Origin: an uncultured delta proteobacterium
GTDB taxonomy: Bacteria > Desulfobacterota > RBG-13-43-22
Direction: 5' to 3'
DNA length: 64,000 nucleotides
Assembly (NCBI GenBank): GCA_963843145.1
Contig: CAWJJC010000028.1
Span: 320,001 to 384,000, forward strand
Shown: positions 22,218 through 62,465 of the stretch, piece by piece
Position numbering within the stretch: position 1 is the stretch's first letter
Layout: each line of letters opens with the position of its first letter
Notes under the pieces: generated by a model
What the model saw: the letters and a program-made list of their open reading frames with translations, nothing else
The model's database searches: none
What the model was told of the DNA's origin: nothing
Program-made: the position numbers and the translations under genes

Positions 22218-22328
22218 ATAAAAAGCCTCCACATGGTTTGATCCCTTATGGAGGCTTCGTATTGGATATTTCAGAATCTCCCACTTCATGTCCCGCTCCA
22301 AGGCTAAAAAGACGATAGCGAAGTTTCC
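22218..22328 (-). promoter_or_regulatory. Conserved leader element copy A with intrinsic terminator
   Basis: Minus strand: AAACTTC-hairpin-GGAC ATGAAGTGGGA-N20-GAAGCCTCCAT...GTGGAGGCTTTTTATTT. Confidence 0.7.
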
Positions 22329-22465
22329 TACACCTGCAGTTCAGGTTTCTGGACAAGAGCGGGAGGAGCCTTGCGGCTCCCCCCAGCTTTGAAAGTACGT
22401 GTGACGATGAATCAGGTGGTTGTATAGTGGCATAACACCTCATAATAGGAAGCTAATGCGGTGCG

Positions 22466-23086
22466 TCACTTTAGTCGCAACAAAACAAACGACCCATTGC
22501 AGATAACCTGTGCCCCCGTTGTGGAGATTTCACTCGTCTGCGAATCCAGGGGGTATAGTATCAGGGGCGCCCCCCAGGTAACGAATATTTGGTTTCCATC
22601 TGGCGAGATGACTCCCCCCCACGAATCTTTAACGCCCAGGTATGCAGAGTTTCCGGCCTGCGCGCCGGTCAGCCATTCCCCGATATACGACCCTTTGACC
22701 AGCGTGAACGTGATCAACCCACTGTGATTCACAGTATAATTAAAATCCCAATGTATGCTAAGTGACCCGCCGCCACCTGTGGGGCCACCAATGTCGTGGG
22801 CTATGACGTCCATTGCTCCCGTGCCATTGTGCTTGAACGTGTAAACACCTTCCCAAGTTTGCGCAGATTGAAAAGATAGAGGAACGTCAGGAATTTGTTT
22901 CGGTTGCAGACTGGAGTCGAACCCCCCAGGTGCTATTAGACATGCGTTCGAACCAGTAACGGCATATTTCCCTTGAATGGTGTTTAACCATCTGCTGATT
23001 TCGGCCGATGCCGTCGCCGCTGCTGCAAATAACGCTATTGCGGTGATCATTACAAAAACGCCCAACTTCATCATTCCTGTTTTCAT
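22466..23086 (-). CDS. Secreted hypothetical beta-rich protein
   Basis: AAGGAGG RBS; signal peptide ending ATASA. Confidence 0.8.
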   Translation of the reverse strand: MKTGMMKLGVFVMITAIALFAAAATASAEISRWLNTIQGKYAVTGSNACLIAPGGFDSSLQPKQIPDVPLSFQSAQTWEGVYTFKHNGTGAMDVIAHDIGGPTGGGGSLSIHWDFNYTVNHSGLITFTLVKGSYIGEWLTGAQAGNSAYLGVKDSWGGVISPDGNQIFVTWGAPLILYPLDSQTSEISTTGAQVICNGSFVLLRLK

Positions 23087-23220
23087 TTGAACCTCCTTTT
23101 AAACGCTCATTGTCTTTTTAATGTTTATTCGCCTATTTGAATCATAATCTTCCTCTATCTCGATTCGATTAGTTCTGAAGACATCCCCCCTTTCAACGTA
23201 CTTTTTCATGGTCTGCCTCC

Positions 23221-23460
23221 TTAGATTCGTTTTTTGGTGGTGCCTCCGGGTGGACTTTCACCCGGCATTGCCTCTTTACTGCTTATCCCCTTTTTCTTCC
23301 CGCTCCGAGGGTTCACTATGGTCCACAATTCTTCCAGGTTCCTGAAACTCTTGATCTTTTTTTTGCCTACCTCCTCGGCCTCGCCGTAAAGATGGTCCGG
23401 TCTGTTCGGCGTTGCCCGGTAGACGCGGACGACGAAACTGCGAACCACCGGCTTTCTCAT
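23221..23460 (-). CDS. Small hypothetical protein downstream of the BTAD regulator
   Basis: RSFVVRVYR...GEAEEVG..KSFRNLEELW; start chosen at ATG 23460 (ATG 23475 is an alternative). Confidence 0.65.
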   Translation of the reverse strand: MRKPVVRSFVVRVYRATPNRPDHLYGEAEEVGKKKIKSFRNLEELWTIVNPRSGKKKGISSKEAMPGESPPGGTTKKRI

Positions 23461-23496
23461 AGCTCTGAGTATCATGGAGCCTAAATAACCCGGACC

Positions 23497-23515
23497 CTGT
23501 GACAAAACTGTGACA
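23497..23515 (-). promoter_or_regulatory. Direct repeat TGTCACAG-N3-TGTCACAG (11-bp period), candidate winged-helix (OmpR/SARP-type) operator
   Basis: Perfect 8-bp direct repeat between the regulator gene and the downstream small gene. Confidence 0.55.
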
Positions 23516-23557
23516 CGAAAGAAAAATATTTCGGGGATTTTTCCGTGAAGGGAGTTT

Positions 23558-26500
23558 TTAGAAGGTTTTTGCCCTCACCTGGCGGTATAGGGCTTCGGTC
23601 CCGGCAGAGGGTTCGACGTCCAGGTGGGCTTTTAGGGTGTTGCGGAGGCGGGTATAGGCCGATATGGCTGCCGCCCTATCTCCAAGGCGGCTGTAGCAGA
23701 TCATCAGTTTCTGGTAAAGTTGTTCGGCAAGGTCGTCCACGTCGAGGGCAGCCCGGTAACTGGCGCAGGCCTCATCCCAGCGGCCCTTTTCCTCAAGTTC
23801 ACCCCCGAGCGCGAGCATGAGGCGGAGGAATCTGTCTCTCAGCCGTGCCCTAGGAGAGAGCACCCAGTGCTCTTCTTCCAGGGGGAGGAAGTCGCCTCGG
23901 TAGAGTTCCATAGCCTGTCTGGCCAGGGACGCCCCATCTTCTTTCCCAAGCTCTGCCTGGGCAAAAACCCGTCCAAAGGCCGCCGTATCCACCCAGACCC
24001 GAAGTGGGTCGAGACTCACCTGGCCTTCGTGAACCAGGAGTGCTTTGTCGCTGCCGAGTAAGCGTCTCAGCCGGGACAGGGTAGTCCTGAAGGAGGTATA
24101 GGCGGCATCGCCCTCCGCATCAGGCCAGAGCAGCTCGCTCAAGGTCTCATCCGTTACCCCCTGGCCTCCCAAGGCAATAAGGGCCTTGAGGAGCAGAAGG
24201 GGCTTCTTCTGGAGCCGCGTCGTGTCGATGGGTGTATCCTCGACGAGGATCTCGAATCTCCCGAGGGTGAAGACTCTGATCGGCCACGGCCAGTGTGGAA
24301 TGTCCAGGGGCGGTGTGTAGGGGAAGAGCTCACGCTGCCGGATGAGGTCACGGGTGTACTCCACCTCTATCCCCGCTTTTAGCGCGATGCTGCACAAACG
24401 GGCCATGAGGGAGGGTATCCAGCAATAAAGCGGAGTTCTATAGCCCTCCTCCCGTCCTATCCGGAAGGCACGCCTGAGGGTATCGCGCGCATCGGGCGTC
24501 CCTTCATCCAAGGCCAGGGAGGCCTCAGCTATCAGGGCGGTATACTCCATGATACGACTCGGGGTTTGCGGCAAGCGCCGAAAGGCAGCTACGTGTTCCC
24601 TCGCCTCGTCTCGCCGACCTGCGGCAGCGAGCACCAGGGCGGAACCACAGTAGCCCAGGGCCGCAACAAAAATACCGAACTCATCGGGAGGGAAGCTCAA
24701 AAGCTGTTGGGCGTGGGCAACCGCACGGTGCGTATCCCCGGATCTTAAATGGTAGAGGGCGGAAACCATGTGATAGCGTTGGACGAAAAGTTTAGGAGCC
24801 CGGCCGAGCATAGACTCCATTTGTACCAGAAAATCAGAGGCCTTCCGAAAATCACCTCGGTCGAGGGCCACGTGGCATCCTTCGGCCAGGAGCATCGGTA
24901 CCCATACGATGGCTCCGTTCTCTGCCGACATTTGGAGACCTTCTTCAAGGAGAGGTAACGGAGATTGATCAAATGGTCCCATCTGGTTCAGCGCCTGGGC
25001 TTTGATCAAACGCCTGCATATCGCCTGTAAGGGGTCCTGTGAGTTTGCGGTCTTCTCCAGTTCCGCTACCACTATTGCCCAACGCCCGTAGTCTCCCAGC
25101 CACATATAGCAAGTCGCGGCCCAGTGCGATATCTCAAGGCGGAGGGAAGTGCCAGCTACGGAGCGCGAGAGCATGAAGGCCCTGTCGATCGATGCCTTGA
25201 ATTCGGGGTGATAGGGCCGCGTCAAAAGGGCCACCATCCTGCTGCCGGCTACCGTGGCCTCGATTTCAGAGGAGGGGAAGGTCCCTCCTTTTGCGGTAAA
25301 CGCGTCGAGCCATTCGATCAGCGGATCGAGAAGTAGAACCTGCTCATCCCTGTACGCGGTCGACATAAGTCCATAGAAGATCGACATGACCGCCCCGGAC
25401 CAGCCAAGAAGGGCGCCGGTAACATCACCGGCCTCGTTGCACTGCGTGAAGCTCCGCTCAAAAAGGAGGCAGGCTCCTTGAGGGTCGTAGGGCTGCCTGC
25501 AGACAGCAAGCCAGTAGAGAAGCCGGGGAGACTCGGAGCGGATCTCTTCGGGTAGAGATCCTATCCACCCCTCGAGGGTCTGGCTTCTGCCCTCAGCGAC
25601 CAAGCCGGGGGCCGCGGCAAGGAGAGCTGGGACCGAACTGTCCCAGTCCTGCGCCGCCATCAGGAGGGTTATCCCTTCCTCCGTGCGGCCCGAGTCTAAA
25701 AAGAGCTTCCCGGCCCGGCACCGGACCTCCCGCATTCTTTCGGGCGTCAGGGAGCTCTCCGCTTCAGAGAGAAGGAAGTCCCTGAAGAGCGGGTGGTAAC
25801 GATATTCATCCTGGTAGAGCTCGGTGAAGTAGTTGTTCCGGTTCAGGTAGGCAAGCAGCTCCCCGCTCTTCTCGAATTGGGTGAGTTGAGAGGCGATCCC
25901 GGCCGAAACGGAGGGAAGCAGCGCCGTAATGGTGAGGAAATCCTTTGTGAGCTGTTCGAGGCCGTCGAAAATCTCGGTCTTGAAGTAATCGAAGACCGAG
26001 CTGTCGCCAATGCGGTGTACCTCAGTGGACCAGACCGGGTCGGACATGAGGATGACTGCCGCCGCCCACCCCTGAGTCCGTTCATGGATATCCCGCACCG
26101 TCTCCTCGGATAAGGGCGTCTTCCTATGCTGCTCGAGCATTTCCCGTACCTCGCCTCGGGTGAGACGGACATCCTCCCAACTTAGGGAGGCAAAACCGTT
26201 GTTCGCCCGCAGGGAGACAAAAGAAGGGGGAGACTCCTTTCTGCTCACCACGAAAACGCGGATGCCCTCGGGCACGACCTTGAGCCCGTTGCGCATCACT
26301 TCGTGGAACAGGGAAGTCTCCGGAACATCCTGGTAGTTGTCGAAGACAATCATTCCGGGAGTTGCCATCCTTTCGAAGAGGGACTCGAAGTAGCGGCGCG
26401 TGAAGGCAGAAATACCGGGACGGTACTCCGGGGTGAAGAGGGGAAGAGGTCTTGCCCGTCCTTTCTTGAGCTGCCTGGCCGCGAGGCGAAGATAGGCAAA

Positions 26501-26782
26501 GAGGGTCGCCACATCCCCGTCGGTCTCGTCCACCCGGTACCAGAGCGTAGGAATTGCTCGTGCCCGGGCGTAGCTGGCCACGAGGGTTGTTTTTCCTGAC
26601 CCGGCCGGTGACGAGACCCAGGTGACTGGATAATCCTGTAGAGTATCCAGGAGACGGAAGAGTCGTTCCCTCAGGACAACCCCGTGTAGCCGAGGCGGTA
26701 CTATCTTGGTTGGATAGGTCGTCCTCGGTCCGGCCAATGCTTGTACTGGAGACTTCGTATCAGAAACCTTTGAAAATCCCAC
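23558..26782 (-). CDS. MalT-like STAND ATPase regulator with C-terminal SARP wHTH and BTAD domains (start uncertain)
   Basis: SPAGSGKTT Walker A, VFDNYQ Walker B, YRYHPLFR, IRVFTLGRF, LWPD, LYRGDFL, EQLYQKLM. Confidence 0.9.
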   Translation of the reverse strand: MGFSKVSDTKSPVQALAGPRTTYPTKIVPPRLHGVVLRERLFRLLDTLQDYPVTWVSSPAGSGKTTLVASYARARAIPTLWYRVDETDGDVATLFAYLRLAARQLKKGRARPLPLFTPEYRPGISAFTRRYFESLFERMATPGMIVFDNYQDVPETSLFHEVMRNGLKVVPEGIRVFVVSRKESPPSFVSLRANNGFASLSWEDVRLTRGEVREMLEQHRKTPLSEETVRDIHERTQGWAAAVILMSDPVWSTEVHRIGDSSVFDYFKTEIFDGLEQLTKDFLTITALLPSVSAGIASQLTQFEKSGELLAYLNRNNYFTELYQDEYRYHPLFRDFLLSEAESSLTPERMREVRCRAGKLFLDSGRTEEGITLLMAAQDWDSSVPALLAAAPGLVAEGRSQTLEGWIGSLPEEIRSESPRLLYWLAVCRQPYDPQGACLLFERSFTQCNEAGDVTGALLGWSGAVMSIFYGLMSTAYRDEQVLLLDPLIEWLDAFTAKGGTFPSSEIEATVAGSRMVALLTRPYHPEFKASIDRAFMLSRSVAGTSLRLEISHWAATCYMWLGDYGRWAIVVAELEKTANSQDPLQAICRRLIKAQALNQMGPFDQSPLPLLEEGLQMSAENGAIVWVPMLLAEGCHVALDRGDFRKASDFLVQMESMLGRAPKLFVQRYHMVSALYHLRSGDTHRAVAHAQQLLSFPPDEFGIFVAALGYCGSALVLAAAGRRDEAREHVAAFRRLPQTPSRIMEYTALIAEASLALDEGTPDARDTLRRAFRIGREEGYRTPLYCWIPSLMARLCSIALKAGIEVEYTRDLIRQRELFPYTPPLDIPHWPWPIRVFTLGRFEILVEDTPIDTTRLQKKPLLLLKALIALGGQGVTDETLSELLWPDAEGDAAYTSFRTTLSRLRRLLGSDKALLVHEGQVSLDPLRVWVDTAAFGRVFAQAELGKEDGASLARQAMELYRGDFLPLEEEHWVLSPRARLRDRFLRLMLALGGELEEKGRWDEACASYRAALDVDDLAEQLYQKLMICYSRLGDRAAAISAYTRLRNTLKAHLDVEPSAGTEALYRQVRAKTF

Positions 26783-26822
26783 TTCATATCTCGTTCAAAA
26801 AGGTTTAGAGAAATAACGAATT
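26745..26822 (-). promoter_or_regulatory. Conserved leader element copy C (terminator degenerate, overlaps the 5' end of the regulator ORF)
   Basis: TCGTT..AACGA-GAT ATGAAGTGGGA-N20-GAAGTCTCC. Confidence 0.55.
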
Positions 26823-26851
26823 AACCTAATCAGGAAAGATAAAAGAGGGGG

Positions 26852-27148
26852 CTAACAACGAATAGGGCAGTTTGGTTGGCGAGGGAGATTGATAAAACAA
26901 GGGAGGCCCTGCAGGAATGAATTACACATTGACAATAAGGGGTGTTCAAAATAAGGAATGGATAAATTGATTTTGGTTTTCTCAGTGAAGGTTGAAGTGG
27001 CCAGGTCTTGATTTTCATAACAGAGATTAGGGGAGAAGGTATCAACCTCGCTCATTTCATAGTAGCTCGCAAAAACGAGGCCCACTAAAAAGCAGATTGA
27101 TAAAAAGGAAACTGAAATAATCGGCCTTTGGCAAATCTTCTTTCCCAT
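26852..27148 (-). CDS. Small hypothetical protein with an N-terminal TM segment and C-terminal ...PIRC
   Basis: 98-aa ORF between leader copies B and C. Confidence 0.55.
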   Translation of the reverse strand: MGKKICQRPIISVSFLSICFLVGLVFASYYEMSEVDTFSPNLCYENQDLATSTFTEKTKINLSIPYFEHPLLSMCNSFLQGLPCFINLPRQPNCPIRC

Positions 27149-27227
27149 TTCCAGCCCTTAAACTCATCTATACCATTATGACCAAGAGCTCCTATTCTTT
27201 CCTGATGAATTATGAAGGTCCAAAATT

Positions 27228-27330
27228 AAGAAAGCCTCCAGAGGAGAATACTTTCCCCGAGAGGCTTCATATCGTAAATTTCTGAAAATCCCACTTCATT
27301 TCCCACTCCCTAAAGGATGGGGTTAAGTTA
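27228..27330 (-). promoter_or_regulatory. Conserved leader element copy B with terminator; TTGACA-type promoter upstream (27403-27398)
   Basis: CCCATCC..GGGAGTGGG-AA ATGAAGTGGGA-N20-GAAGCCTCT...GGAGGCTTTCTT. Confidence 0.7.
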
Positions 27331-27645
27331 GGATATTTACTCAAAAATTTTTTGTAATTTATTGTAGCAGTTAATGCCTAACAACTTTTAGAAAAAATGT
27401 CAATAAAATTATGATTTAAAACTTTCAGGGGATAACCCAGAAGGTAGCTGCCGTGGTTTTAAATCTTCCACTATTAAGTTAAGGAATAGCGTTCGAAATC
27501 TGGCAGTTTTGGCAAATCTTCAAAAAGTGGATTACAGGAAGAAGCCCGTTGCAGGGTTTACATTGCCCTACCCAACCCTTTATATTTTTATATTCGGTGT
27601 TCGGCAGGTCCTACCGGATTTTATTTTCTGGTCATGTGGTTCGGA

Positions 27646-29076
27646 TTAACCGCTCTTTTTCTCTCCCTTTTTCCATTCCGGGAAAACAATTTTCTCTCCG
27701 ATCCGGATTCTGTTGATATCCTTAATTCCAGGATTGTATTTCCGGACATAATCCCGCAACACTTGACTGGAAAAACCGTAGACCTTCAGCACCATCCGGA
27801 AAAAATTATCGCCCTTTTTGACCACTAGGGTGCCCCGGACGGGTGGCTTTTTCAAAACAAATAGTGGCTTCCCTTCATTATTCGAGCCCGGCTTCAAGGG
27901 CTTCGACTTTTTCTTAATAACTTGGAGATTCCCCTCTAATCGGTGGGAAGGTTTCAGTATTTCTGTTTCGGAGACGATCGGGGAGGTTGACGGGGCCTCC
28001 TCTTTTACCGAACCCTTTGAAGCCGATGGAACGGAGGGTCGTACAGACTCCTTTTCTTTAGACGAATCGATCATGGGGACCGAAGGAACAGATTTTCCCT
28101 CAGTGGCCTTACCGGGTGCTATCCGCCCGGATTGTCCTTGATTTATTGATGGAAGCCGGAAATCCCACATACGGGACAAATCCAGAGACCGGTCTAGGGC
28201 CATCCATCCCAGCAAGATCAATAAGACAATTACGGAGGATAAGGCCCAAGGAAAATTATTTATCCTTTTAGTGGCCAGCGGGCCGTCAATAACCTCTTTA
28301 ACGATTTTCCCTGAAATGGGTTTTTGGGCCCGTTCATACCCTCTGATCAGCACTTTGTTGCTGAGGATGTTAATTTTCCCCGGCCTCCCCCCGGCCTGGC
28401 GAATGATCTTATCCAGGGCACCCCGGGTGAATATGGCCTTGACCCGCCCGCCGGCCTTTTCTATCCGTGATGTGATATACTCCCGGCTCTCCTTGGGGGT
28501 TAAAGGAAGGAGGAGGATCCTCACACCGATCCGCTGTTTAAGCTGCCTTAAATCATGATGGCCCAGTGTCTCCCAAAACTCCGGCTGCCCGATAAAGACG
28601 ATCTGGATGGGGTTTTCGGAGGGGACCTTTTGGTTGGAAACCATCCGCAGGCTTTCCAGGGTCTCCTCGGGCATGTCGTGGGCTTCATCAATCAATAATA
28701 CCACGTTGGTGCCGGCTTCATAAGCCCTGCGCAAGCCCTGGATCAATTGATATGAAAGGCCCGGCTGTCCTTCACTTTCTCCCGGCAGGCCGAGTTCGCG
28801 GCAGAGAAATCGAAGGAGTTCCTCAAAGGAAATATTGCTGTTAAGCAACGGGATTGTCTTGAGGTTGCCCTGGCTCGCCTCTCGGAGGAACGCCTGGATC
28901 AGGGTGGTCTTTCCCAAGCCGAATTCCCCCAGGACCGTCATATAACCCTTCCGCTGGGAGACCGTATCGGTCAAGAGTTCCAAGGCCTTCTTCTGGCTGG
29001 AACTTAAAAAGAAAAATTTTGAATCTGAGGAAAGCGGAAAGGGCTTTTCTCTAAGCTGATAGAAATCAAGGTACAT
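27646..29076 (-). CDS. ExeA/GspA-family AAA ATPase with a TM segment and C-terminal LysM-like domain
   Basis: MYLDFYQLREKPF, GEFGLGKTT, LLIDEAH, IGQPE, LRQLKQRI; C-terminal VKKGD...NPGIKDINRIRIG. Confidence 0.9.
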   Translation of the reverse strand: MYLDFYQLREKPFPLSSDSKFFFLSSSQKKALELLTDTVSQRKGYMTVLGEFGLGKTTLIQAFLREASQGNLKTIPLLNSNISFEELLRFLCRELGLPGESEGQPGLSYQLIQGLRRAYEAGTNVVLLIDEAHDMPEETLESLRMVSNQKVPSENPIQIVFIGQPEFWETLGHHDLRQLKQRIGVRILLLPLTPKESREYITSRIEKAGGRVKAIFTRGALDKIIRQAGGRPGKINILSNKVLIRGYERAQKPISGKIVKEVIDGPLATKRINNFPWALSSVIVLLILLGWMALDRSLDLSRMWDFRLPSINQGQSGRIAPGKATEGKSVPSVPMIDSSKEKESVRPSVPSASKGSVKEEAPSTSPIVSETEILKPSHRLEGNLQVIKKKSKPLKPGSNNEGKPLFVLKKPPVRGTLVVKKGDNFFRMVLKVYGFSSQVLRDYVRKYNPGIKDINRIRIGEKIVFPEWKKGEKKSG

Positions 29077-29257
29077 GCGTCAGCGATTATTTTTCTTCCC
29101 CCGGATTGGCGGCAGGGCAGTCAACCCCGGTCACAGTCAGTCCAGGAAGGCCGGGCCTTGACTTCAGACCCCAGAGCGAAGCCGGCAAGGCCCGAAGGAG
29201 ATCCTCGTCGTTTTCTGAGCCTGTCTGTCCGTCTCTCCGAAAGCCGTTTACCCGGTT

Positions 29258-29618
29258 CTAAATTTCCTTAAGGGCCATGGCCGTATTTTTTGTATTCTGG
29301 AGAATGGCCGCATCCAAAAGCTTATCTTTATCCTTTACCGTTCTTAGCCGGTGCGATTCTTTTTACAATAGCCCCAATATTACCTTCCGGTTTTCCGCCG
29401 TCAACGGTCGCTTTTACCGCCCCGCAGGATTGATGTCCCAATATCAGGACCAAAGGAACACCAAGATGTTCCACGGCATACTCGACGCTTCCAAGCTCGA
29501 TGGGATCGGCAATATTGCCGGCTACCTGGATCACAAAAATATCGCCCAGTCCCTGGTCAAAAACGTGCTCCGGTGGAACCCGGGAATCGGAACAGCTTAA
29601 GACTACCGCAAAAGGATG
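29258..29618 (-). pseudogene. Beta-carbonic anhydrase fragment, N-terminally truncated and frameshifted
   Basis: [44 protein letters not shown]; the frame continues as ..DAAILQN.. after a shift near 29340. Confidence 0.85.
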
Positions 29619-29838
29619 AACAGAATTATAAACCATTTTGAAAATAGTAAATAGGGTGAATCTGACCCTAGGGGCAATGGTTCGGAGGGAGGAAAGTAAC
29701 AATTTTCATTTGAAATGTTCCCAATTAGCCCATTCTTAAGAAACAACAGTTCAGGAAGCTATACGTACTAAAATCTGATTTTCTTATTGAAGTTAATAGG
29801 TTACATGTTGTTCAAAATCTCATAGTTTGGTTATTTCG

Positions 29839-31777: not shown

Positions 31778-32129
31778 CTCTGTCTCCTTTTCTTAAATCA
31801 ATAAGAAAATCAGACAGATGATGACTAATAAACTCTTATCTGTCAAACATCAGCTTGGTACGTATAGCAGGAAGAAGCCGAGCATGTTGATATTCCACTA
31901 AAACCCATCCTTTTTACTAAATTTACCTCTTTCTACAAGGGGAAGCAGGGTATCCGGATTTTCTTTTTTGACGAAGTCTCCCAGAAACGTTACTATTAAA
32001 CCATAATGTTATGGGCCAACTTTCACAAAAAAGAGATATTAACGGTTTCAAAATAATTGGTAACCTTCAAAAGTTGAGGCAATGAACCCTTTGCTGGGAA
32101 CTTGTCATAAAGGGATCGAAGGAGACGAT

Positions 32130-34346: not shown

Positions 34347-34423
34347 TGGTGCCCCTGGCCCGACTTGAACGGGCGGCCTACAGATTAGGAATCTGTCGCT
34401 CTATCCTACTGAGCTACAGGGGC
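34347..34423 (-). tRNA. tRNA-Arg(CCT)
   Basis: GCCCCTG acceptor stem, TAGCTCAGTAGGATAGAGC D arm, ACAGA-TTCCTAA-TCTGT anticodon arm, GTTCAAGT T loop, encoded CCA. Confidence 0.96.
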
Positions 34424-34620
34424 TTTAGAGTTTTCAAGAGGTACGGGAAGGATACTACCACAAATCGGTTGAAATAGAAAGGATTGGAAATTTAAACTGA
34501 TCCTAAGTCTTTGCGAGGAGAGAAGCGACGAAGCAATCCCTCTAACAGCTTAAAATCCTTCCCAGATTGGACCGGGGGAAGCAAAGACACCTGTGTTTGG
34601 GCCAATTTACTTATTAGAAC

Positions 34621-50151: not shown

Positions 50152-50154
50152 CCC

Positions 50155-51474: not shown

Positions 51475-51557
51475 GGAGCGGGGAGAGGGACTGGGATCGC
51501 CAAACTCGAAATCCGAAATGAACCCAAATGACTGAATATCAAAAAAGGAGGTAGATT

Positions 51558-52547: not shown

Positions 52548-52550
52548 ACC

Positions 52551-55049: not shown

Positions 55050-55143
55050 ACCGGGAAGGAGAGGGGAAGGTAAACTCAGCGCTTAGATCGGAACTTGTCA
55101 AGGGATATTAAATGGTTCCATGGCCAGGGGCTTCCTTTTTTGC

Positions 55144-55173
55144 TTGACAATTTTTTAGCTCAGCCAGTATACT
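55144..55173 (+). promoter_or_regulatory. Sigma70-type promoter of the second TRAP operon
   Basis: TTGACA-18 nt-TATACT. Confidence 0.6.
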
Positions 55174-55332
55174 CCCGGCATGACTATATTATAATTATAA
55201 TGTATTTAATTTATGGCGATAAACAGGAACTTTGGGCGAAAAAGGAGGTGAGGGAGGCGAATTAGCAAGCCTTCATATCCATTGGCCGGATCGCACGCTT
55301 AACAGTCGATAACCATTCAGAGGAGGTAAGGC

Positions 55333-56355
55333 ATGTTTAAAAAAGGATTATCTTTTATGGTTGGAGGGTGTTTTTTTCTTTCCATTCTTTTGCTTGGGGT
55401 TAGCCCTTCTCAGGCCAAGACGATCGAACTTACCTATTCCATTTTCTTTCCCGCTACCCATACCCATACGGTATTAGCAACCGAATGGGCTAAGGAGATA
55501 GAAAAACGGACCAACGGGGCAGTAAAGATTACCATGTTTCCGGGCGCCACGTTGACGCCGGCCAACCAGTGCTACGATGGCGTAGTTAAAGGGATCTCGG
55601 ACATCGGCATGTCGGTGCTTAGTTACACGGCCGGGCGTTTTCCCTTAACGGAGGTCATCGACATGCCGCTGGGATATAAAAGCGGCTCCCAGGCCACCCG
55701 GTTGTGCAATGCCTACTACCAAAAGTTTCAACCCAAGGAATTGGACGATGTCAAGGTGATGTACCTTCATGGGCACGGTCCGGGCCTCCTCAATACCCGG
55801 GATAAACCAATATCTAAAATGGAAGAACTGAAGGGAATGAAGATCCGCTGCACCGGGACTACCGCCAAACTGGTCTCCCATTTAGGGGCCACGCCGGTGG
55901 CCATGCCCCAGACCGAGACCTACGATGCCGTCCAGAAAGGGGTGGTGGAAGGCCTGATGTCGCCTATTGAAACGTTAAAGGGATGGAAATTCGCGGAAGT
56001 GGTTAAATATACCACGTTGAACTACGGCACAGCCTATTCCATGGCCTTCTTTGTGGTCATGAACAAACAAAAGTGGGCCTCTTTGCCCAAAGAAGTCCAA
56101 ACGGTCATTCAGAAGGTGAATGAGGAATGGATCGAAAAAACGGCCAAGGCCTGGGACGATATTGATAAGTCCGGCCTGGAATTTGCCAAGTCCAAGGGGC
56201 ATCAATTTATACCCTTGTCCAAGCAGGAAGACGAACGCTGGGCCCAGGCGGCCCGGCCCATGTTTGCCGAATATGCTCAGGCCATGAAAGGCAAGGGACT
56301 GCCCGGCGAAGAAGCTTTGAATTTTTGCTTAACCTGGTTGAAGAAAAATCCCTAA
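55333..56355 (+). CDS. dctP: TRAP substrate-binding protein
   Basis: Signal peptide; GRFPL, LKGMKIR, YDAVQKGVVEG. Confidence 0.94.
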   Translation: MFKKGLSFMVGGCFFLSILLLGVSPSQAKTIELTYSIFFPATHTHTVLATEWAKEIEKRTNGAVKITMFPGATLTPANQCYDGVVKGISDIGMSVLSYTAGRFPLTEVIDMPLGYKSGSQATRLCNAYYQKFQPKELDDVKVMYLHGHGPGLLNTRDKPISKMEELKGMKIRCTGTTAKLVSHLGATPVAMPQTETYDAVQKGVVEGLMSPIETLKGWKFAEVVKYTTLNYGTAYSMAFFVVMNKQKWASLPKEVQTVIQKVNEEWIEKTAKAWDDIDKSGLEFAKSKGHQFIPLSKQEDERWAQAARPMFAEYAQAMKGKGLPGEEALNFCLTWLKKNP

Positions 56356-56379
56356 ATTTAATCGTTGGCCCTCCGATTC

Positions 56380-56430
56380 GGTATTCCCTTCGACCTTCCA
56401 GAGCCGGGAGGTTAAAGGGAATACCATTTC
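56380..56430 (+). terminator. Intercistronic hairpin after dctP
   Basis: GGTATTCCCTT...AAGGGAATACC. Confidence 0.5.
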
Positions 56431-56465
56431 AATAAACAATTTGTTCTAGCCAGGGGAGCAGCCCC

Positions 56466-56945
56466 ATGAATATTTTGGTTAATAGCATCCACAAAGTTTC
56501 CCGCCTCATGTACTGGATCGCGGGAATCGCCTTGGCCGGGATCATGTCTTTGACCGTGGCCGACGTCTTTTTGCGGTATTTTAAGCTGCCCATTGAAGGG
56601 ACTTTTGAGATCGTCTCTTTAATGGGGGCAGTGGTTATTGGCTTTGCCATTCCCCAGACCACCATTGAACGCGGGCACGTACTGATGGATTTTTTGACCG
56701 AACGACTTTCCTTTGGCGGGCAGCGGGTCCTGCACCTGGTTACCCGATTATTGGGCAGCTTTACTTTTTTGATCATCGGCTGGAACCTTTTTAAGCTGGG
56801 TAACGATCATCTGGCCAACGGCCAGGTCACTTTGACGTTGAAATTCCCTGAATACCCGGTGGCTTATGGGATCGCCTTTTGCTGTCTCTTGGAGTCTCTG
56901 GTTTTGTTGACTGACCTGATCAAAAAAAAGGGGGCGGAAGTATGA
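56466..56945 (+). CDS. dctQ: TRAP transporter small permease
   Basis: DVFLRY, RGHVLMD, four TM segments. Confidence 0.9.
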   Translation: MNILVNSIHKVSRLMYWIAGIALAGIMSLTVADVFLRYFKLPIEGTFEIVSLMGAVVIGFAIPQTTIERGHVLMDFLTERLSFGGQRVLHLVTRLLGSFTFLIIGWNLFKLGNDHLANGQVTLTLKFPEYPVAYGIAFCCLLESLVLLTDLIKKKGAEV

Positions 56946-58243
56946 GTTTCGGTATCATCGGCCTGCTGACGGTAATTCTCCTGTTTGTCCTCTTTCTTTT
57001 GGGCCTGGAAATCGGTTTTTCCATGGCCCTGGCCGGATTTATCGGTTTTGCCGCTATCGTCAATGTCCCCGCGGCCCTGAACCTGGTGGCCAAGGACATT
57101 TATAGTGTCTTTTCCTCCTACGGGTTCACGGTCATACCTCTCTTTGTCTTGATGGGACAAATAGGGGCCAGCGGCGGGGTGGCCCGAAATCTCTATGACG
57201 CAGCCTATAAATTTATCGGCCATATCCCGGGAGGGCTGGCCATCGGGACCGTCGGGGCCGCCACGGCCTTCAAGGCCATCTGCGGTTCCTCTCCGGCCAC
57301 GGCCGCCACTTTTGCCACCATCGCCGTCCCGGAGATGGACCGCTATGGTTATGACAAACGGCTTTCTTGCGGTACCGTGGCTACCGTCGGGACCCTGGGA
57401 GTTTTAATCCCGCCCAGCGTAACCCTGATCATCTACGGCATCCTGACCGAGACCTCCATCGGCAAGTTATTTTTAGCAGGGATCATCCCCGGATTGATCA
57501 TCGCTTTTTCTTTTGTGGTTACCCTCTACGGGTGGTGCAAAATCAACCCCAAGCTGGGGCCCAAGGGGCGTAAATCCACCTGGAAGGAACGGTTCGCCTC
57601 TTTGCCCCAGGTCTTTTGGGTGGCCGTGATTTTTGTCCTGGTGGTCGGGGGGTTGATGTGGGGTTTTTTTACCCCAACCGAGGCCGGCAGTATCGGGACC
57701 TTTGCGGTGCTCATCCTCACCCTGGCTAAAAGGGATATGAACCTGAAGCGTTTTATCAAGGCGATTCAGGATACCTTGCGGATCAGTTGCATGGTGATTA
57801 CCCTGATCGCCGGGGCCACTATTCTGGGTCATTTTTTCGCGGTGACCCGGACCCCTTATCTCGTGGCCGATTGGCTGGGCGGCCTGCCTTTGGATCGTAA
57901 TCTGATCATGATTCTCATTTTTGTTATTTATCTGATCGGCGGCTCCTTCATCGAGGACTTGGCTTTTCTCATCCTGGCTACCCCCATTTTTCTGCCCTTG
58001 GTCCTCAAATTGGGGTATGACCCGGTGTGGTTCGGGGTCATCGTCTGCGTCATTACCATGATCGGCATCATCCTGCCGCCCATGGCCATCAATGTCTTTG
58101 TTGTCGCCGGGGTAACGAAGGTGCCCATCGGCACCATTTATAAAGGCATTTACCCCTTTATTGTGGGCATGTACATTTGTCTATTTATTTTTCTGTTTTT
58201 CCCCCAGATCTCCCTCTGGCTGCCTAATTTAATTATGAAATGA
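56942..58243 (+). CDS. dctM: TRAP transporter large permease
   Basis: IPLFVLMG, LIPPS, FTPTEAG, DPVWFG. Confidence 0.95.
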   Translation: MSFGIIGLLTVILLFVLFLLGLEIGFSMALAGFIGFAAIVNVPAALNLVAKDIYSVFSSYGFTVIPLFVLMGQIGASGGVARNLYDAAYKFIGHIPGGLAIGTVGAATAFKAICGSSPATAATFATIAVPEMDRYGYDKRLSCGTVATVGTLGVLIPPSVTLIIYGILTETSIGKLFLAGIIPGLIIAFSFVVTLYGWCKINPKLGPKGRKSTWKERFASLPQVFWVAVIFVLVVGGLMWGFFTPTEAGSIGTFAVLILTLAKRDMNLKRFIKAIQDTLRISCMVITLIAGATILGHFFAVTRTPYLVADWLGGLPLDRNLIMILIFVIYLIGGSFIEDLAFLILATPIFLPLVLKLGYDPVWFGVIVCVITMIGIILPPMAINVFVVAGVTKVPIGTIYKGIYPFIVGMYICLFIFLFFPQISLWLPNLIMK

Positions 58244-58255
58244 GGCGAGGTGGCT

Positions 58256-59725
58256 ATGAATCCCTTCAAGGTGCTATTCGTTTCACCGGAAGTCGTGCCT
58301 TTTGCCAAAACCGGCGGGTTGGCCGATGTGGCCGGTTCACTGCCCAAGGCGTTGAAAAGATTAGGCTGCGATGTGCGTCTGGTCATGCCGCTCTACCGCA
58401 TGGTCCGGCAGGGCAATTTCTCTCTGAAAAAAACACTGGAGGGGATCCGGGTCCCGGTGGGCGGACGGACCATTGAAGTGGATATTTACGAATCGACCCT
58501 GGCGGAAGGACTCCCGGTTTATTTTATTGAGCGGGATGAATTTTTCGATCGCAGTTACCTTTACGGCACTTCTCGAGGGGACTATTTTGACAACGACCAG
58601 CGCTTCGTCCTCTTCTGCCAGGCAACCCTGGCCCTGGCTCCCCTGATCTCCTTTCAACCGGATGTCTTTCATGGCCACGACTGGCAGACGGGTTTGATTC
58701 CGGCCTACTTGCATTTCCTTCGGACCCGGGACTCCTTTTGGGCCAACACGGCCAGTATTTTCACCATCCACAATATCGCCTATCAGGGGATATTTGACCC
58801 GGACATCATCCCTCTGGCCGGCCTGCCCTGGGAGACCTACAACCCTTCCGGACTGGAATTCTGGGGATCGGTCAACCTCTTGAAGTCTGGGATCGTCTAC
58901 AGCCAGATCATCAATACCGTAAGCCGGAAATACGGTCAGGAAATCCAAACCGAAGAATACGGATACGGTTTGGAGGGGATTCTCTCGTACCGTCGGAATG
59001 ACCTTTTCGGCATCATCAATGGCGTTGATTATGAGTCCTGGAACCCCCAAACAGACCCCTTAATCGCCGCTGCTTTTGGGGCAGACGACCTTTCGGGGAA
59101 AATGGCCTGCAAGGTCGATCTGCTGAAGCAATTCAACCTTTCGGAGGAACGGCAGGTCTATCCGCTATTGGGGGTTATCTCCCGCCTGGCCGACCAGAAA
59201 GGGTTTGACCTGCTGGCCGCAGTCATGGACCGACTGATCGAGAAAGAGGTAACCCTGGTAGTTCTGGGAACAGGTGAGGAGAAATACCATCAACTCTTTT
59301 CCGATCTGGCGGCGAAGTTCCCCCAAAAAATCGGCCTGCGATTGGCTTATGATAACACCCTGGCTCACAAAATTGAGGCCGGGAGCGATATGTTCCTCAT
59401 GCCTTCCCGTTACGAACCCTGTGGGTTGAATCAGATATACAGCCTGAAATACGGAACGATTCCCATTGTGCGGGCTACCGGCGGCCTGGACGATACCATC
59501 CAGCCTTTCAAATCCCTGGATCAGTCGGGTACCGGGTTTAAATTCCAGGAATACCAGGCCGAGGCCTTCTGGCAGTCTCTGGAGGAGGCTTTGGAAACCT
59601 ATGGAATTCCCCATCTCTGGCGGGCGCTGATGCGCAATGCCATGTCCCAGGACTTTTCCTGGGAGAATTCCGCCCGCGAGTACCTGCGCCTGTATCAACT
59701 GGCCCGGGATCGTCTCAGCGCTTGA
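58256..59725 (+). CDS. glgA: Glycogen synthase
   Basis: KTGGLADV, HDWQ, TIHN.AYQG, QKG, PSRYEPCGL. Confidence 0.97.
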   Translation: MNPFKVLFVSPEVVPFAKTGGLADVAGSLPKALKRLGCDVRLVMPLYRMVRQGNFSLKKTLEGIRVPVGGRTIEVDIYESTLAEGLPVYFIERDEFFDRSYLYGTSRGDYFDNDQRFVLFCQATLALAPLISFQPDVFHGHDWQTGLIPAYLHFLRTRDSFWANTASIFTIHNIAYQGIFDPDIIPLAGLPWETYNPSGLEFWGSVNLLKSGIVYSQIINTVSRKYGQEIQTEEYGYGLEGILSYRRNDLFGIINGVDYESWNPQTDPLIAAAFGADDLSGKMACKVDLLKQFNLSEERQVYPLLGVISRLADQKGFDLLAAVMDRLIEKEVTLVVLGTGEEKYHQLFSDLAAKFPQKIGLRLAYDNTLAHKIEAGSDMFLMPSRYEPCGLNQIYSLKYGTIPIVRATGGLDDTIQPFKSLDQSGTGFKFQEYQAEAFWQSLEEALETYGIPHLWRALMRNAMSQDFSWENSAREYLRLYQLARDRLSA

Positions 59726-59744
59726 GAAAATCGGCAGGGAGGTT

Positions 59745-59892
59745 CGACCTGAGTGACTCGACTAAGCCTTTTCGGCAAGCTCAAGGCCCTGAGCGACTCG
59801 ACTGAGCCTTTTCGGGAAGCTCAAGGCCCTGAGCCTGTCGAAGGGCTCGCCGAAGTCCTGTCGAAGGGCTCGTCGACAAGTCTCGCCGCTGG
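59745..59892. repeat. REP-like cluster with an internal 40-bp tandem duplication
   Basis: GACTCGACTRAGCCTTTTCGGSAAGCTCAAGGCCCTGAGC x2 and CCTGTCGAAGGGCTCG x2; same family as 908-997. Confidence 0.8.
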
Positions 59893-59935
59893 GTCTCATC
59901 GCCGGCCGATACAAAAACGAAGCTCTAAAATCCAA

Positions 59936-60475
59936 ATGGTCATAGCCAGAATGGTTCGATTTTTGAAGATATTCCTCCGTTCCCGGATGTTGACGGGAGC
60001 GCTGATGCTGATCCTGGTTTACGGCCTGGGTGCCGGCCTTTCCCCGGCCGGGCCACCCGATAGGGAGTGGAAAAGCGGGTCGGATAAGTTGAACCTGACT
60101 GACGATCAGGCGCAAACCCTTCTGGAACTTCGGAACAGGTTTCGTCAGGAAATGATTCAGGTCCGGAAAAAAATGGCGAGTAAGCGGTTGGAACTGCGGA
60201 CCTTGAGTGAAGAAGAATTTCAAGGCCCTCGAGGGGAAGAAATTCGAAAAGAACTCCAGGCCCTTTTCCTGAACGGCCGGGAAAGGGCTTTGGTGTATCA
60301 AGCGGAGGCCCTGAAGATTCTGCGGGCGGACCAGAAAGAGAAACTCCCTCCCGGAAGCGACCTGGGTTTTCGCTGCCATTGGGGTTTTTTTATGGGGGGA
60401 GGCTTCGGCAGGGATTTCCATAGAAACCGAAACCACCCTGGTCTTCCGTCGGAGAACCCCCCGAGTCGACCCTAA
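59936..60475 (+). CDS. Spy/CpxP/ZraP-like periplasmic protein (start uncertain)
   Basis: Signal-like segment, LNLTDDQ and ILRADQ (LTxxQ-type) motifs; upstream of a sensor kinase. Confidence 0.7.
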   Translation: MVIARMVRFLKIFLRSRMLTGALMLILVYGLGAGLSPAGPPDREWKSGSDKLNLTDDQAQTLLELRNRFRQEMIQVRKKMASKRLELRTLSEEEFQGPRGEEIRKELQALFLNGRERALVYQAEALKILRADQKEKLPPGSDLGFRCHWGFFMGGGFGRDFHRNRNHPGLPSENPPSRP

Positions 60476-60538
60476 CCCCAAAATCAGATATTTTAGGGTA
60501 GGAAGCCTTCCCGTTAATCCTTGAGCAGGCTCCGGACC

Positions 60539-62293
60539 ATGAATCAACGAGCTTTTCATTATGCCTACTATTTGCTTCCGGTCCTGGCGGTTCTAATCCT
60601 GTTGCTGTTGATCAACGGATATTTTGAAATTCAGCGGACCCGAGCCCAGTTGTTCGACCTCCTGGAGACGGAAGGACAACTGCTCATCCGGGGGATTGAC
60701 ACCAATGCCACCAATCTGATCAAACGTTTTCTGGACGTCGGCCGCCAGTCGCCGGTCACGAACCTCCGGGAGACACTGGAAACGGACCCGTTGCTCGGGC
60801 TGGAGGATATCCTCATCGAGCGACTGGTCGACCTGGGCCTGCGGTTGGATCAGGAAGCGGCGAAGAAATCCGGAGATTCCGGGTATCGGAGCGGGTTGAT
60901 AGCCAAGACCGGATTGGCGCATATCGAATTTATCGCCCCGCCTCGGGAAGACCGGTCCCAGATGCCGCGTTACCGGGAGTTCTTGAAAAATCCATCTTTT
61001 CAGAAGCTGTTAAATGGTCAATCCCGGCTTTTTCTTTCCCGAAAAGAGCCGGGAAAGGAGAGTCCTTTTCCCCTGACGCTGGCCCTGGCCCGGCGTTTTG
61101 ACCGAGGCTTTATTTTGATACGTATCTCCCCGGAAGAATACCGTTTCCTGGGGGAGCAGATCATTATCCAGGGATTGATCAATGAATTTTTCGGGAAAGG
61201 AAATCTGGCCTACCTGGAAATCCTGGATTCCCGAAAACGGGTTTTGGGAGAAGCAGGGAACGGGTCAGCGGCCAACCCGCCAACGGTTGAATGGAAAAAA
61301 CCCTGGCCGGGGAAAGAAGCCCCTTTGGCTTGGATAAAAAGATCCGATGGTGAATTTTTAGAACTGTCCCGGGCCTTCGCCCCGGACGGACGGTCTCCAG
61401 GCTCTATCCGGCTGGGCCTGTCCCTTAAGGGAATCACTCCCATACTCTATCAATCCCAGAAGCGTATTCTCCTCATGACCGCCGTGCTTTTAGCCTTGGG
61501 CATAGTCAGCTTTATTATCATTTTTCAAATCCAAAACCGCCATTTCAGCAAAATAAAGGAACTGGAGGAGCAGATGCGGCTTCAGGAAGAACTGTCCGCC
61601 ATGGGCCAACTAGCGGCCGGTGTGGCCCATGAGATCAAGAACCCCCTGAACGCCATCGGCCTGGTTGTGCAACGTCTTCAAAAAGAGTTCCGCTGGGTGG
61701 ACCCTCAAGGGCAGCAGGAATACGAGCGGTTTACCGGAATCGTCCGGGACGAGATCAGCCGGGTCAATAAAATCATTGAACAGTTTCTATTTGTGGCCCG
61801 GCCGTTCCAGTCGGAATTCAAAGACCAGGCCGTGGAGGAAATTCTGGATTACGTCTTGAACCTGCTGGAGGAGGCCATAACAGGCAGCGGGATAGCACTG
61901 GAGAAAAACTGGGAAAAGGATCTGCCGCCCGTGCGGGGAGATCGCTCCCAGTTGACCCAGGCCTTTCTGAACCTGCTCAATAACGCGCTGGAAGCGATGC
62001 CCGGGGGCGGTCGTTTGAAGCTGGTCCTAAAATCAATCCCGGGATTGAATGCCATTGAATTGCGGATTGAGGACAGCGGGCCCGGGATTCCTCCGGAAAA
62101 TCTGAAAAAGGTTTTTGCCCACTATTTTACCACCAAGGAAAAGGGGATCGGCTTGGGTCTGGCCATTACCCAAAAGATCATCCGGGGCCATAAAGGCAGC
62201 CTGGTAGTACGCAGCCTCCCAGGACAGGGGACGACGGTCAGGATTCGTCTCCCGGTAACGGAGAAGAAAATAAACGGCCCATTTTTCTGTTGA
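60539..62293 (+). CDS. Membrane sensor histidine kinase (ZraS/NtrB-like)
   Basis: Two TM segments; AAGVAHEIKNPL, NALEAM, DSGPGI, FTTK, GLGL. Confidence 0.95.
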   Translation: MNQRAFHYAYYLLPVLAVLILLLLINGYFEIQRTRAQLFDLLETEGQLLIRGIDTNATNLIKRFLDVGRQSPVTNLRETLETDPLLGLEDILIERLVDLGLRLDQEAAKKSGDSGYRSGLIAKTGLAHIEFIAPPREDRSQMPRYREFLKNPSFQKLLNGQSRLFLSRKEPGKESPFPLTLALARRFDRGFILIRISPEEYRFLGEQIIIQGLINEFFGKGNLAYLEILDSRKRVLGEAGNGSAANPPTVEWKKPWPGKEAPLAWIKRSDGEFLELSRAFAPDGRSPGSIRLGLSLKGITPILYQSQKRILLMTAVLLALGIVSFIIIFQIQNRHFSKIKELEEQMRLQEELSAMGQLAAGVAHEIKNPLNAIGLVVQRLQKEFRWVDPQGQQEYERFTGIVRDEISRVNKIIEQFLFVARPFQSEFKDQAVEEILDYVLNLLEEAITGSGIALEKNWEKDLPPVRGDRSQLTQAFLNLLNNALEAMPGGGRLKLVLKSIPGLNAIELRIEDSGPGIPPENLKKVFAHYFTTKEKGIGLGLAITQKIIRGHKGSLVVRSLPGQGTTVRIRLPVTEKKINGPFFC

Positions 62294-62352
62294 CAAATTG
62301 TTGAGATATGCTGTTTATTTAATAGTATTCATAATTCGCTAAGACTTTTGAT

Positions 62353-62465
62353 AAACTTCCCCACCTAATCTGAACTGACCAAGGATCTGGAAATGAAGTG
62401 GGAGTATCATCAGGCTGCGGTAGGAAGCCTCCGGGGGGGTCAAACCCATTGGAAGGCTTTTTTTG
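62353..62465 (+). promoter_or_regulatory. Conserved leader element copy D with terminator; TTGACA upstream at 62290
   Basis: AAACTTC...GGAA ATGAAGTGGGA-N20-GAAGCCTCC...GGAAGGCTTTTTTTG. Confidence 0.7.

Follow-up and report, generated by a model that had tools for sequence, protein, structure and literature searches.

In the classical attenuators of the trp, his, thr, phe, and ilv operons, a leader open reading frame (ORF) is followed by an intrinsic terminator, and the position of the ribosome decides on termination. To our knowledge, leader-peptide attenuators have so far been described as isolated devices that control single amino-acid operons or resistance genes. In the present study, we analyzed a short leader unit present in four copies (A to D) in 64,000 nucleotides of DNA from an uncultured delta proteobacterium (GenBank assembly GCA_963843145.1, contig CAWJJC010000028.1, positions 320,001 to 384,000; this whole stretch is referred to as the window, and positions are counted from its first letter). 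The unit occurs in multiple copies in sense orientation before genes, and its sequence makes it, on balance, probable that it represents a new family of ribosome-dependent (leader-peptide) transcription attenuators. It resembles the classical attenuators in that a short leader ORF with its own Shine-Dalgarno (SD) site precedes an intrinsic terminator ahead of structural genes. It differs from them in lacking a regulatory codon run and a link to amino-acid biosynthesis, in the conservation of the peptide sequence itself across families, in a stop codon located in the foot of the terminator, in that no antiterminator/anti-antiterminator set was found, and in its number, with 6 to 43 copies per genome before unrelated genes. 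A description of the element was not found in the literature by a search conducted mostly at the level of abstracts and without supplements. The attenuator kind is known; the regulon-scale reuse of one decapeptide leader and the stop codon inside the terminator foot are apparently new.

Among other systems, pyrBI of Escherichia coli is a coupling attenuator based on UTP-dependent pausing. Regarding the pil1 leader of Streptococcus gallolyticus, the available parts of the report describe a ribosome on the leader peptide that destabilizes a premature terminator, with the reach of the peptide, the length of which is switched by repeat slippage, deciding read-through (PMC3894217). The unit is similar to pyrBI and pil1, as far as these parts describe the latter, in the physical blocking of a premature terminator hairpin by a translating ribosome, as proposed here, and the reach of the pil1 peptide parallels the 'short' (TGA) and 'long' (CGA) forms of our leaders; however, pyrBI and pil1 are single loci, whereas a conserved decapeptide is reused genome-wide here. 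PepNL is described, in the portions of the source at hand, as a 14-amino-acid peptide that arrests at UGA and is relieved by Trp-tRNA read-through, and TnaC, SpeFL, and MsrDL are named beside it with an emphasis on the importance of C-terminal residues (PMC11890864). Judged from these portions, arrest peptides of this type resemble our unit in that the nascent peptide is conserved and very short, UGA is strongly preferred, and the output acts, or in our unit would act, on the downstream gene, but half of the copies here have a sense codon at the stop position, and the likeness is drawn without a claim of sequence similarity. We know of stop-codon arrest peptides as single-locus and not as regulon-wide systems. 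The ilvB-II motif of Corynebacterium is, in the excerpts available, a 5' region that was once a candidate structured RNA and was then read as a regulatory upstream ORF (uORF) (PMC10272879). Our unit likewise is a conserved 5' region that turned out to be a uORF; unlike it, ilvB-II belongs, according to these excerpts, to a different group of organisms and to a single amino-acid biosynthesis operon. The regulons of the c-di-GMP-I riboswitch and the T-box also consist of multi-copy leaders, which sense through a folded RNA aptamer. They share with our unit the tens of copies per genome and the single type of terminator-ending leader before heterogeneous genes, but the conserved unit here is a translated ORF that matches no Rfam family.

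An earlier note on this DNA had reported an invariant core at four positions, followed after exactly 20 variable nucleotides by the octamer GAAG(C/T)CTC. An exact search returned the 11-mer ATGAAGTGGGA at precisely these positions and orientations, namely, 22279-22289 (-; copy A), 26777-26787 (-; copy C), 27289-27299 (-; copy B), and 62393-62403 (+; copy D). When up to one mismatch was allowed, the window contained six matches, whereas 1.23 were expected and none of 100 shuffles gave as many. The whole assembly (5,345,541 bases) contains six exact copies, four in the window and the other two on contigs C20 and C27, and GAAG[CT]CTC follows at exactly 20 nt in all six. It was present at this distance in 0 of the 87 one-mismatch matches genome-wide, the listing of which was inspected by eye. 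The 20 nt are not a free spacer, as 'variable' had implied, but belong to a conserved short ORF, of which they form codons 4 to 11; a constant handle with a 20-nt 'guide' RNA was rejected for this reason. By its coding pattern, the invariant core is the start of this uORF and not an RNA aptamer, and the observation in the earlier note that it reads ATG AAG TGG GA was correct: these are the first codons of a uORF with an SD site.

The uORF has the consensus M-(K/R)-(W/R/K)-x-(F/Y)-(Q/R)-K-(V/M/F)-P-(I/M/L) over the families of bacteria that carry it and MKWEFQKFPI, followed by TGA or CGA, in the family of the window. Distant copies read, for example, MRRSYRKVPI, MKWSYRKVPI, MRKGFQKVPM, MKKGFRKMPL, and MRRWGYQKMVM, each with a stop codon thereafter; length variants, such as the last, differ by 3 nt. 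K7, P9, and a hydrophobic residue at position 10 are conserved, and runs of codons for any sensed amino acid, a feature of the classical amino-acid subclass, were not found in the uORF peptides. Coding statistics were obtained for 110 non-redundant copies from the window's family and other families. A start codon lies exactly 10 codons before the hairpin-abutting codon in 95 of these copies (ATG 87, ATA 4, GTG 3, TTG 1) and 11 codons before it in a further nine. Identity between window's-family and other-family copies at codon positions 1, 2, and 3 was 0.615, 0.608, and 0.417, and the mean BLOSUM62 score over eight codons was 14.1 for the uORF frame, compared with 3.1 and 2.1 for the two alternative frames. 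In the 60 window's-family copies, the third bases of AAR, CAR, and AAR (Lys, Gln, Lys) are almost only A or G, while all four bases occur in CCN (Pro). The spacing of the SD site is also constant, the first G of GGAG lying 10 nt before ATG in 100 of 108 copies. Independent ascertainment was provided by a metagenome scan in which only codons 7-11 and the hairpin arm were fixed: among the matches listed, 79 copies were usable, 67 of which had ATG exactly 18 nt upstream and 73 a start codon there with an open frame, and an SD-like 4-mer was present in 63 of the 75 with any start and an open frame. It is strongly supported by these patterns that the uORF is translated and selected for its peptide, at the amino-acid level.

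Regarding the hairpin that follows, the earlier note had described the octamer as running into a terminator hairpin in copies A, B, and D, which is borne out by the sequence and by folds, with a strong hairpin followed by T-runs. To judge from its compensatory changes, this hairpin is a conserved RNA structure: in distant copies, 94.4% of the cells were paired and 10 of 13 pairs had changes on both sides, in an alignment that the model had fitted to the structure and that favors the pairing score. An example is AAGGCUCC paired with GGAGCCUU. The observed covariation was reached in 0 of 500 shuffles, and slid registers were at most 73.7% paired. Hairpins have medians of 36-37 nt and -22 kcal/mol, and a strong U-tract, defined as at least five T in the next eight bases, follows in 48 of 60 window's-family and 29 of 35 other-family copies (77 of 95). 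A GC-rich hairpin with a U-tract and compensated pairing, as expected of an intrinsic terminator, is present in A, B, and D and absent in copy C. Simple scans of the window for promoters and terminators gave few matches; the terminator scanner missed these hairpins because of their interior loops. The hairpin is general to the unit, and its terminator function is common, not universal.

In 46 of 95 copies, the uORF stop codon (TGA 41, TAA 5) coincides exactly with the hairpin foot, the 5' arm beginning at its third base. Because the peptide is conserved and TGA makes up 41 of these 46 stops compared with 37% of the stops in long ORFs of this genome, the data suggest that the nascent chain slows termination at codon 11, in the manner of an arrest-type leader peptide. 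Among homologous downstream genes, some are preceded by a TGA leader and others by a CGA leader (L050 versus L025). Nucleotide 31 is a pyrimidine and nucleotide 32 is G each in 49 of 60 window's-family and 27 of 35 other-family copies, and this Y31-G32 step is compatible with what we take to be the consensus pause of RNA polymerase. At codon 10, A is the third base in 52 of the 60 window's-family copies, and ATA accounts for 10% of the Ile codons genome-wide; the A-rich stretch may equally be explained as the A-tract partner of the terminator U-tract. A selenocysteine reading of TGA and the hairpin as a selenocysteine insertion sequence was rejected, the alternatives at this codon being CGA, GGA, and AGA and not Cys codons, as was a second ORF from an ATG overlapping TGA (ATGAAGCC...), neither the frame nor the stop of which is conserved.

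Upstream of the uORF, the promoter pattern TTGAC[AT]-N16-18-TANNNN placed a -10 element 58-79 nt before ATG in 13 of 60 window's-family and 20 of 34 other-family copies, compared with at most three in shuffles. The TTGACA hexamers noted earlier upstream of copies B (27398-27403) and D (62290-62295) are present. The 5' untranslated region (UTR) is C/A-rich and nearly G-free, and UAAAC..CCCAAC..UAACCCC..AACCU is conserved in it across families. Its last 7 nt, together with the first two G of the SD site, can pair with uORF nucleotides 15-23 in a 9-bp SD:uORF helix, which was 82-84% paired in other families and in the metagenome matches listed, against at most 60% in slid registers; a different helix, UCCCAACUU with AAGUGGGA, is predicted in the window's family. 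A C-G to U-A switch links position -5 to nucleotide 21, the synonymous third base of Lys-7 (Fisher 1.4e-8). RNAalifold on 30 sequences gave only two short helices, with double-sided changes in two of seven pairs, in one and three sequences, and several copies without the 5' domain keep the SD site, uORF, and hairpin.

Other readings of these segments were considered and rejected. Pairing of the core (UGGGAGUUU) with the 5' arm as an antiterminator is possible on paper, but changes at positions 12-14 are not compensated, and no support was found for the alternative pairing of AAACTTC with GAAG or for the repeat unit with a 29-nt period proposed in the earlier note. CCGATAT, presumably a sigma-28-like motif, has the wrong spacing for such a promoter and frequent CCAATA/CTGATA variants, and transcription would start inside the terminator. 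Regarding a CsrA-type GGA sponge, conservation is already accounted for by the SD site and the codons.

In the attenuator mechanism that we propose, the leader of approximately 130 nt would consist of a sigma-70-type promoter, the C/A-rich 5' UTR, the SD site, the 10-codon uORF, and the hairpin with its usual U-tract, and in the default state the hairpin and U-tract would end transcription. Once the uORF has been translated, a ribosome standing on codons 10/11 would cover the 5' arm of the hairpin, the stop codon in the A site placing the mRNA channel over this arm; in the 'long' variants, the ribosome would run on through the hairpin. A terminator covered in this manner could not form, and RNA polymerase would read into the gene; if uORF translation were absent or late, the terminator would act. 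Pairing of the 5' UTR and SD site with the uORF codons would limit initiation and might also cause the polymerase to pause where a pyrimidine is followed by G in codon 11, providing timing. Candidates for the signal that is read are general translation capacity, RF2/UGA decoding, and a small molecule acting on the nascent chain. The geometry is compatible with occlusion, the stop codon overlapping the 5' arm in the 46 copies described above, and both the TGA and CGA forms fit because a ribosome on the uORF would cover the arm in either; no other reading fits both. A bolder form of this proposal, in which the decapeptide M-(K/R)-(W/R)-x-(F/Y)-(Q/R)-K-(V/M)-P-I would be a new phylum-wide ribosome-arrest peptide that holds the ribosome on UGA (or slow CGA) at the terminator foot, as a global switch of deltaproteobacterial lineages with 6 to 43 leaders per genome, is advanced tentatively, as a possibility that the sequences raise and that we consider rather doubtful. 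If true, this switch would govern small alpha+beta proteins (GYD, DUF3303, DUF3237, DUF1330, EthD, tautomerase), secreted proteins, and adenylate-cyclase/STAND regulators.

Of 102 scorable copies, 87 have the longest ORF of the next 900 nt downstream on their own strand and 15 have it on the opposite strand; one further copy has none, and seven of the 110 had too little flank. All four window copies are co-oriented with their downstream genes, as the earlier note had stated, and its idea of a regulon, a multi-copy leader with same-strand genes downstream, holds. Downstream starts have their own SD sites, at a median of 87 nt past the hairpin; the regulated gene starts approximately 45-135 nt after it. 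The 149 downstream products fell into 95 clusters, including 71 singletons. The largest cluster, with 12 members, comprises adenylate/guanylate cyclases with AAA_16 or TPR, and other Pfam matches among the products tested were a BTAD regulator, GYD, Tautomerase, DUF3237, DUF3303, DUF1330, EthD, ABM (weak), Cupin_2, DUF362, AMP-binding, HbpS-like, and the Redoxin selenoprotein candidate behind copy D. Several recurrent small proteins match no family, a hydrophobic N-terminal segment was present in 64 of the 149 products by a crude test, and the genes named by Pfam are not biosynthetic. Different bacterial families have the same gene families behind the leader, a pattern that favors a conserved regulon.

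Two further observations concern these genes. In the metagenome copies L177, L194, L250, L254, L236, and L239, leaders with a hairpin and no U-tract precede cyclase-TPR genes, with a conserved spacer of approximately 78 nt that has CCUUCC shortly before the SD site of the gene; these leaders may be a translational variant of the switch. In L170, a GYD-like gene approximately 30 nt after the leader appears to have an in-frame TAG after seven codons, beyond which the same frame continues; recoding, a sequencing error, or decay to a pseudogene could account for it.

Regarding the spread of the unit, 15 of 41 related genomes contained a two-part pattern with up to two mismatches, and 13 of these were among the 20 genomes of the same family, compared with one match for the reversed-pattern control over related genomes. 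An exact three-part pattern run over 185,579 species, each represented by one genome, returned 19 stretches, of which 17 are labeled as metagenome-assembled genomes (MAGs) of 'uncultured delta proteobacterium', one as a groundwater Deltaproteobacteria MAG, and one as a 3-kb Spirochaetota contig. Aligned copies form a unit of approximately 115 nt and not two short motifs. With covariance model R1, built from 30 copies, 17 of the 21 genomes searched in the window's family yielded 78 matches, a few of which are reverse-strand echoes of the hairpin; further families of the phylum yielded weaker ones. Model R2, for which 51 sequences from both the window's family and more distant copies were used, gave 285 matches in 16 of 17 genomes of a second family, f37, with 1 to 43 per genome, matches in one of two genomes of family f29, and matches in 19 of 151 genomes, from 12 families, across a sample of the phylum; copies from nine of these 12 families were inspected directly. 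In the metagenome collection, at least 120 contigs carry the unit according to the pattern that fixes codons 7-11 and the arm. In far copies with diverged nucleotides, GGAG approximately 10 nt before ATG, 10 (sometimes 11) open codons, and a stop, mostly TGA, on the start of the hairpin recur.

Some arrangements depart from the single leader. In an f37 genome (L145, 1-1620), two tandem leaders 273 nt apart, with a spacer of approximately 160 nt, precede one gene, an arrangement that is itself repeated 1.2 kb further on, and close pairs 223-273 nt apart are found in other f37 genomes too. In the window's family, L010, L063, L024, and L097 have a uORF cut to five codons (MEWEI, then TAG or TAA) and an unrelated 5' UTR without an SD site, always before the same 58-amino-acid protein without a Pfam family.

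Several observations weigh against the attenuator reading. Codons 2-10 are open in 90 of 95 copies, and frame +2 is likewise open in 90 of 95; therefore, openness alone proves nothing. The start is ATA in 4 of 95 copies, an in-frame stop precedes codon 11 in 5 of 95, frame-breaking indels occur in 6 of 110, and copy D differs from its orthologue L028 by five amino-acid changes in 10 codons, with the 33 nt before ATG identical. A sense codon occupies position 11 in 49 of 95 copies (CGA in 20), and thus a stop at the hairpin foot is not universal; in these 49, the frame ends inside the hairpin in five, within 20 nt after it in 16, and further on in 27, and one has no hairpin. Of the 95 copies, 16 have a weak U-tract or none, and two more lack a predicted hairpin; in the 79 foldable metagenome copies among the matches listed, the U-tract was strong in 33, weak in 23, and absent in 20, with no predicted hairpin in three. 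Termination therefore cannot be the only output. In the 5' leader, the SD:uORF helix is weak in the window's family (59% paired versus 53% in slid registers), the covariation of position -5 with nucleotide 21 may be a single evolutionary event because the switch follows the family split, fold energies of the UTR and uORF are only approximately 1 standard deviation below shuffles, and a covarying antiterminator helix was not found by RNAalifold or by fold comparisons of copies. Since R1 and R2 were built from these same sequences and the copies are related, the counts are not independent, and their independence is overstated. RNA runs containing the region were not listed; the runs listed were three of soil-metagenome DNA, with a small share of words.

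The alternative that survives best, which we nevertheless consider unlikely, is that the main effect of the uORF and hairpin is on translation or the fate of the mRNA and not on transcription termination. In this view, a ribosome located at the uORF stop would open an SD-like/anti-SD-like hairpin (CCUCC/GGAGG) in an erm-type manner, or alter mRNA stability, and the U-tract would be a secondary addition in AT-richer lineages. The combination of uORF and hairpin without a U-tract is indeed common, as shown by the 20 copies with none and 23 with a weak one among the metagenome matches listed, by a GC-rich family (L169, L173, L174), and by internal copies; moreover, the hairpin arms, which contain CCUCC and GGAGG, are conserved in sequence as well as in pairing. 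However, in 77 of the 95 copies taken from genomes, a hairpin of -22 kcal/mol is immediately followed by a strong U-tract, the SD sites of the main ORFs are located 45-160 nt away, outside the hairpin, and folding of a remodeling cascade gave nothing clear, the main start having been located in one of six loci.

We regard it as quite unlikely that the terminated leader is also, or instead, a trans-acting or dual-function small RNA of approximately 130 nt with its own promoter and terminator. The promoter-like site and terminator of each copy would release a discrete short transcript, and an attenuator-derived small RNA with functions in trans is on record, in the part of the literature seen, for the rhizobial trp leader. 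Nevertheless, the same-strand bias with a gene directly downstream (87 of 102) is unexpected for free-standing small RNA genes, the best-conserved feature is a peptide and not a seed sequence, and internal copies have no terminators.

The earlier note had left the choice between a riboswitch, a protein-dependent antitermination site, and a leader-peptide attenuator, with a leaning toward an unrecognized RNA element; the third option is favored by the present results, and that leaning is not. A riboswitch or protein-binding antitermination RNA in which the ORF is incidental appears very unlikely. It would be in line with a multi-copy leader that ends in a terminator, with the conservation of the C/A-rich 5' UTR across families, and with a heterogeneous regulon such as those of second-messenger riboswitches. 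However, Rfam 15 at gathering thresholds over the whole window matched a tRNA alone and nothing at the leader copies, and the E-value mode around the copies gave chance-level matches only (E at least 1.5), in agreement with the earlier note, in which no known riboswitch class had been recognized. In addition, the conserved 5' part is nearly G-free with no covarying multi-helix fold, this domain is absent from several copies that keep the SD site, uORF, and hairpin, and the codon-position pattern, 3-nt indels, SD spacing, and ATG at -18 are difficult to explain without translation. The Rfam match is a tRNA-Arg gene (anticodon CCT) at 34347-34423 (-), the sole gathering-level match in the window.

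That the units are independent genes for a functional 10-residue peptide, or a selfish dispersed repeat without a regulatory role, is highly improbable, since the up to 43 copies per genome, the tandem pairs, the similar nucleotide sequences, and the patchy taxonomic distribution that speak for it are countered by the orientation bias and fixed place between promoter and gene, by the lack of terminal repeats and transposase context, by selection on the peptide and hairpin pairing rather than on DNA identity, and by 'long' variants that alter the product completely and yet are kept.

Within the window, copy B lies on the minus strand. A sigma-70-like promoter candidate (TTGACA, 17 nt, TAGGCA; 27375-27403) was identified by sequence and pattern match, its -10 element ending 75 nt before the uORF ATG. 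The C/A-rich 5' leader (27300-27349; R1 and fold) contains GGGAG as an SD site, then GGGAA just before ATG, and is predicted by folding to pair with uORF codons 2-4 (CCUAACUU with AAGUGGGA). The uORF (27267-27299) has 10 codons and TGA (MKWDFQKFTI), the stop codon overlapping the foot of the terminator hairpin (GAAGCCUCU ... GGAGGCUUU), which was identified by folding and by covariation in relatives and has a T-rich tail (27221-27268). The R1 match spans 27219-27349 (122 bits), and the gene behind it is a Cys-rich ORF of 98 amino acids (26852-27148, -), the N-terminus of which is hydrophobic and which matches no Pfam family.

Copy C, between this ORF and a regulator gene, is by its composition an internal, degenerate copy: a uORF only (MKWDFQRFLI, CGA, and 17 more codons to TAG; 26701-26787, -), supported by the sequence, R1 (30.2 bits), and R2 (match at 26741-26811), with the octamer GAAGTCTCC present and the hairpin and U-tract both absent. 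The regulator is of the STAND type with BTAD (E 6.8e-24), TPR, and Trans_reg_C domains (23558-26581, -). Its true start is probably further upstream than the GTG at 26581 because the frame is open back to 26782 and homologues point likewise; the open stretch (26581-26782, -) reaches a GTG inside the copy C core, and the regulator may start within, or just after, the degenerate leader.

Copy A, also on the minus strand, has a 5' leader with an SD site (GGAGCGGGAC before ATG; 22290-22337; R1 and fold), the 5' half of which departs from the family consensus, and a uORF of the 'long' variant, in which codons 1-11 (MKWEILKYPI, then CGA; 22257-22289) continue in an open frame through the hairpin. 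Positions 22215-22258 hold the terminator hairpin (GAAGCCUCC ... GGAGGCUUU) with its U-tract (fold; z = -2.8 for the whole leader), and the R1 match lies at 22210-22337 (88.7 bits). The gene behind copy A (21425-22141, -) encodes a secreted protein of 238 amino acids with Gly-Pro-rich collagen-like (G-P-x) repeats and a weak Pfam Collagen match that is below the cut-off (E 0.0098; 16.1 bits versus 27.2). A separate GC-rich hairpin, GGGGGGAGCC ... GGCUCCUCCC, at 22360-22385 (-) comes directly behind a 206-amino-acid ORF (22466-23086), ahead of leader A, and is probably the own terminator of the gene for that ORF.

In copy D, on the plus strand, promoter candidates at 62290-62328 are TTGACA (62290-62295) and TTGAGA, 16 nt, TAGTAT (62301-62328). 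The 5' leader (62342-62392; R1) has a weak SD site (AAGGAUCUGGAA), and the uORF (MKWEYHQAAV, with GGA at codon 11) runs through the hairpin to TAG in 25 codons (62393-62470). The terminator hairpin (GAAGCCUCC ... GGAAGGCUU) and U-tract, identified from sequence and fold, lie at 62424-62468, and the R1 match at 62342-62472 (96.9 bits). The gene behind copy D (62508-63077, +) encodes a secreted protein of the Redoxin/AhpC-TSA family with TGA at codon 82 in U-P-V-C, and is a likely selenoprotein as judged by this in-frame TGA in a U-x-x-C motif.

Taken together, uncultivated deltaproteobacterial lineages reuse one conserved 10-codon leader before unrelated genes, dozens of them in a single genome, and this leader is common in the metagenome collection scanned. 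This matters for the annotation of these MAGs because the uORFs are too short for gene finders. If the attenuator mechanism holds, it would disclose a large, hitherto invisible regulon and allow many proteins of unknown function to be linked to one signal; it would also provide a new short peptide for work on nascent-chain control of termination and a caution that 'conserved non-coding motifs' from RNA searches can be tiny translated ORFs. If the decapeptide does act as a global arrest-type switch, the regulon of these bacteria would be run by a leader peptide rather than by a transcription factor or riboswitch.

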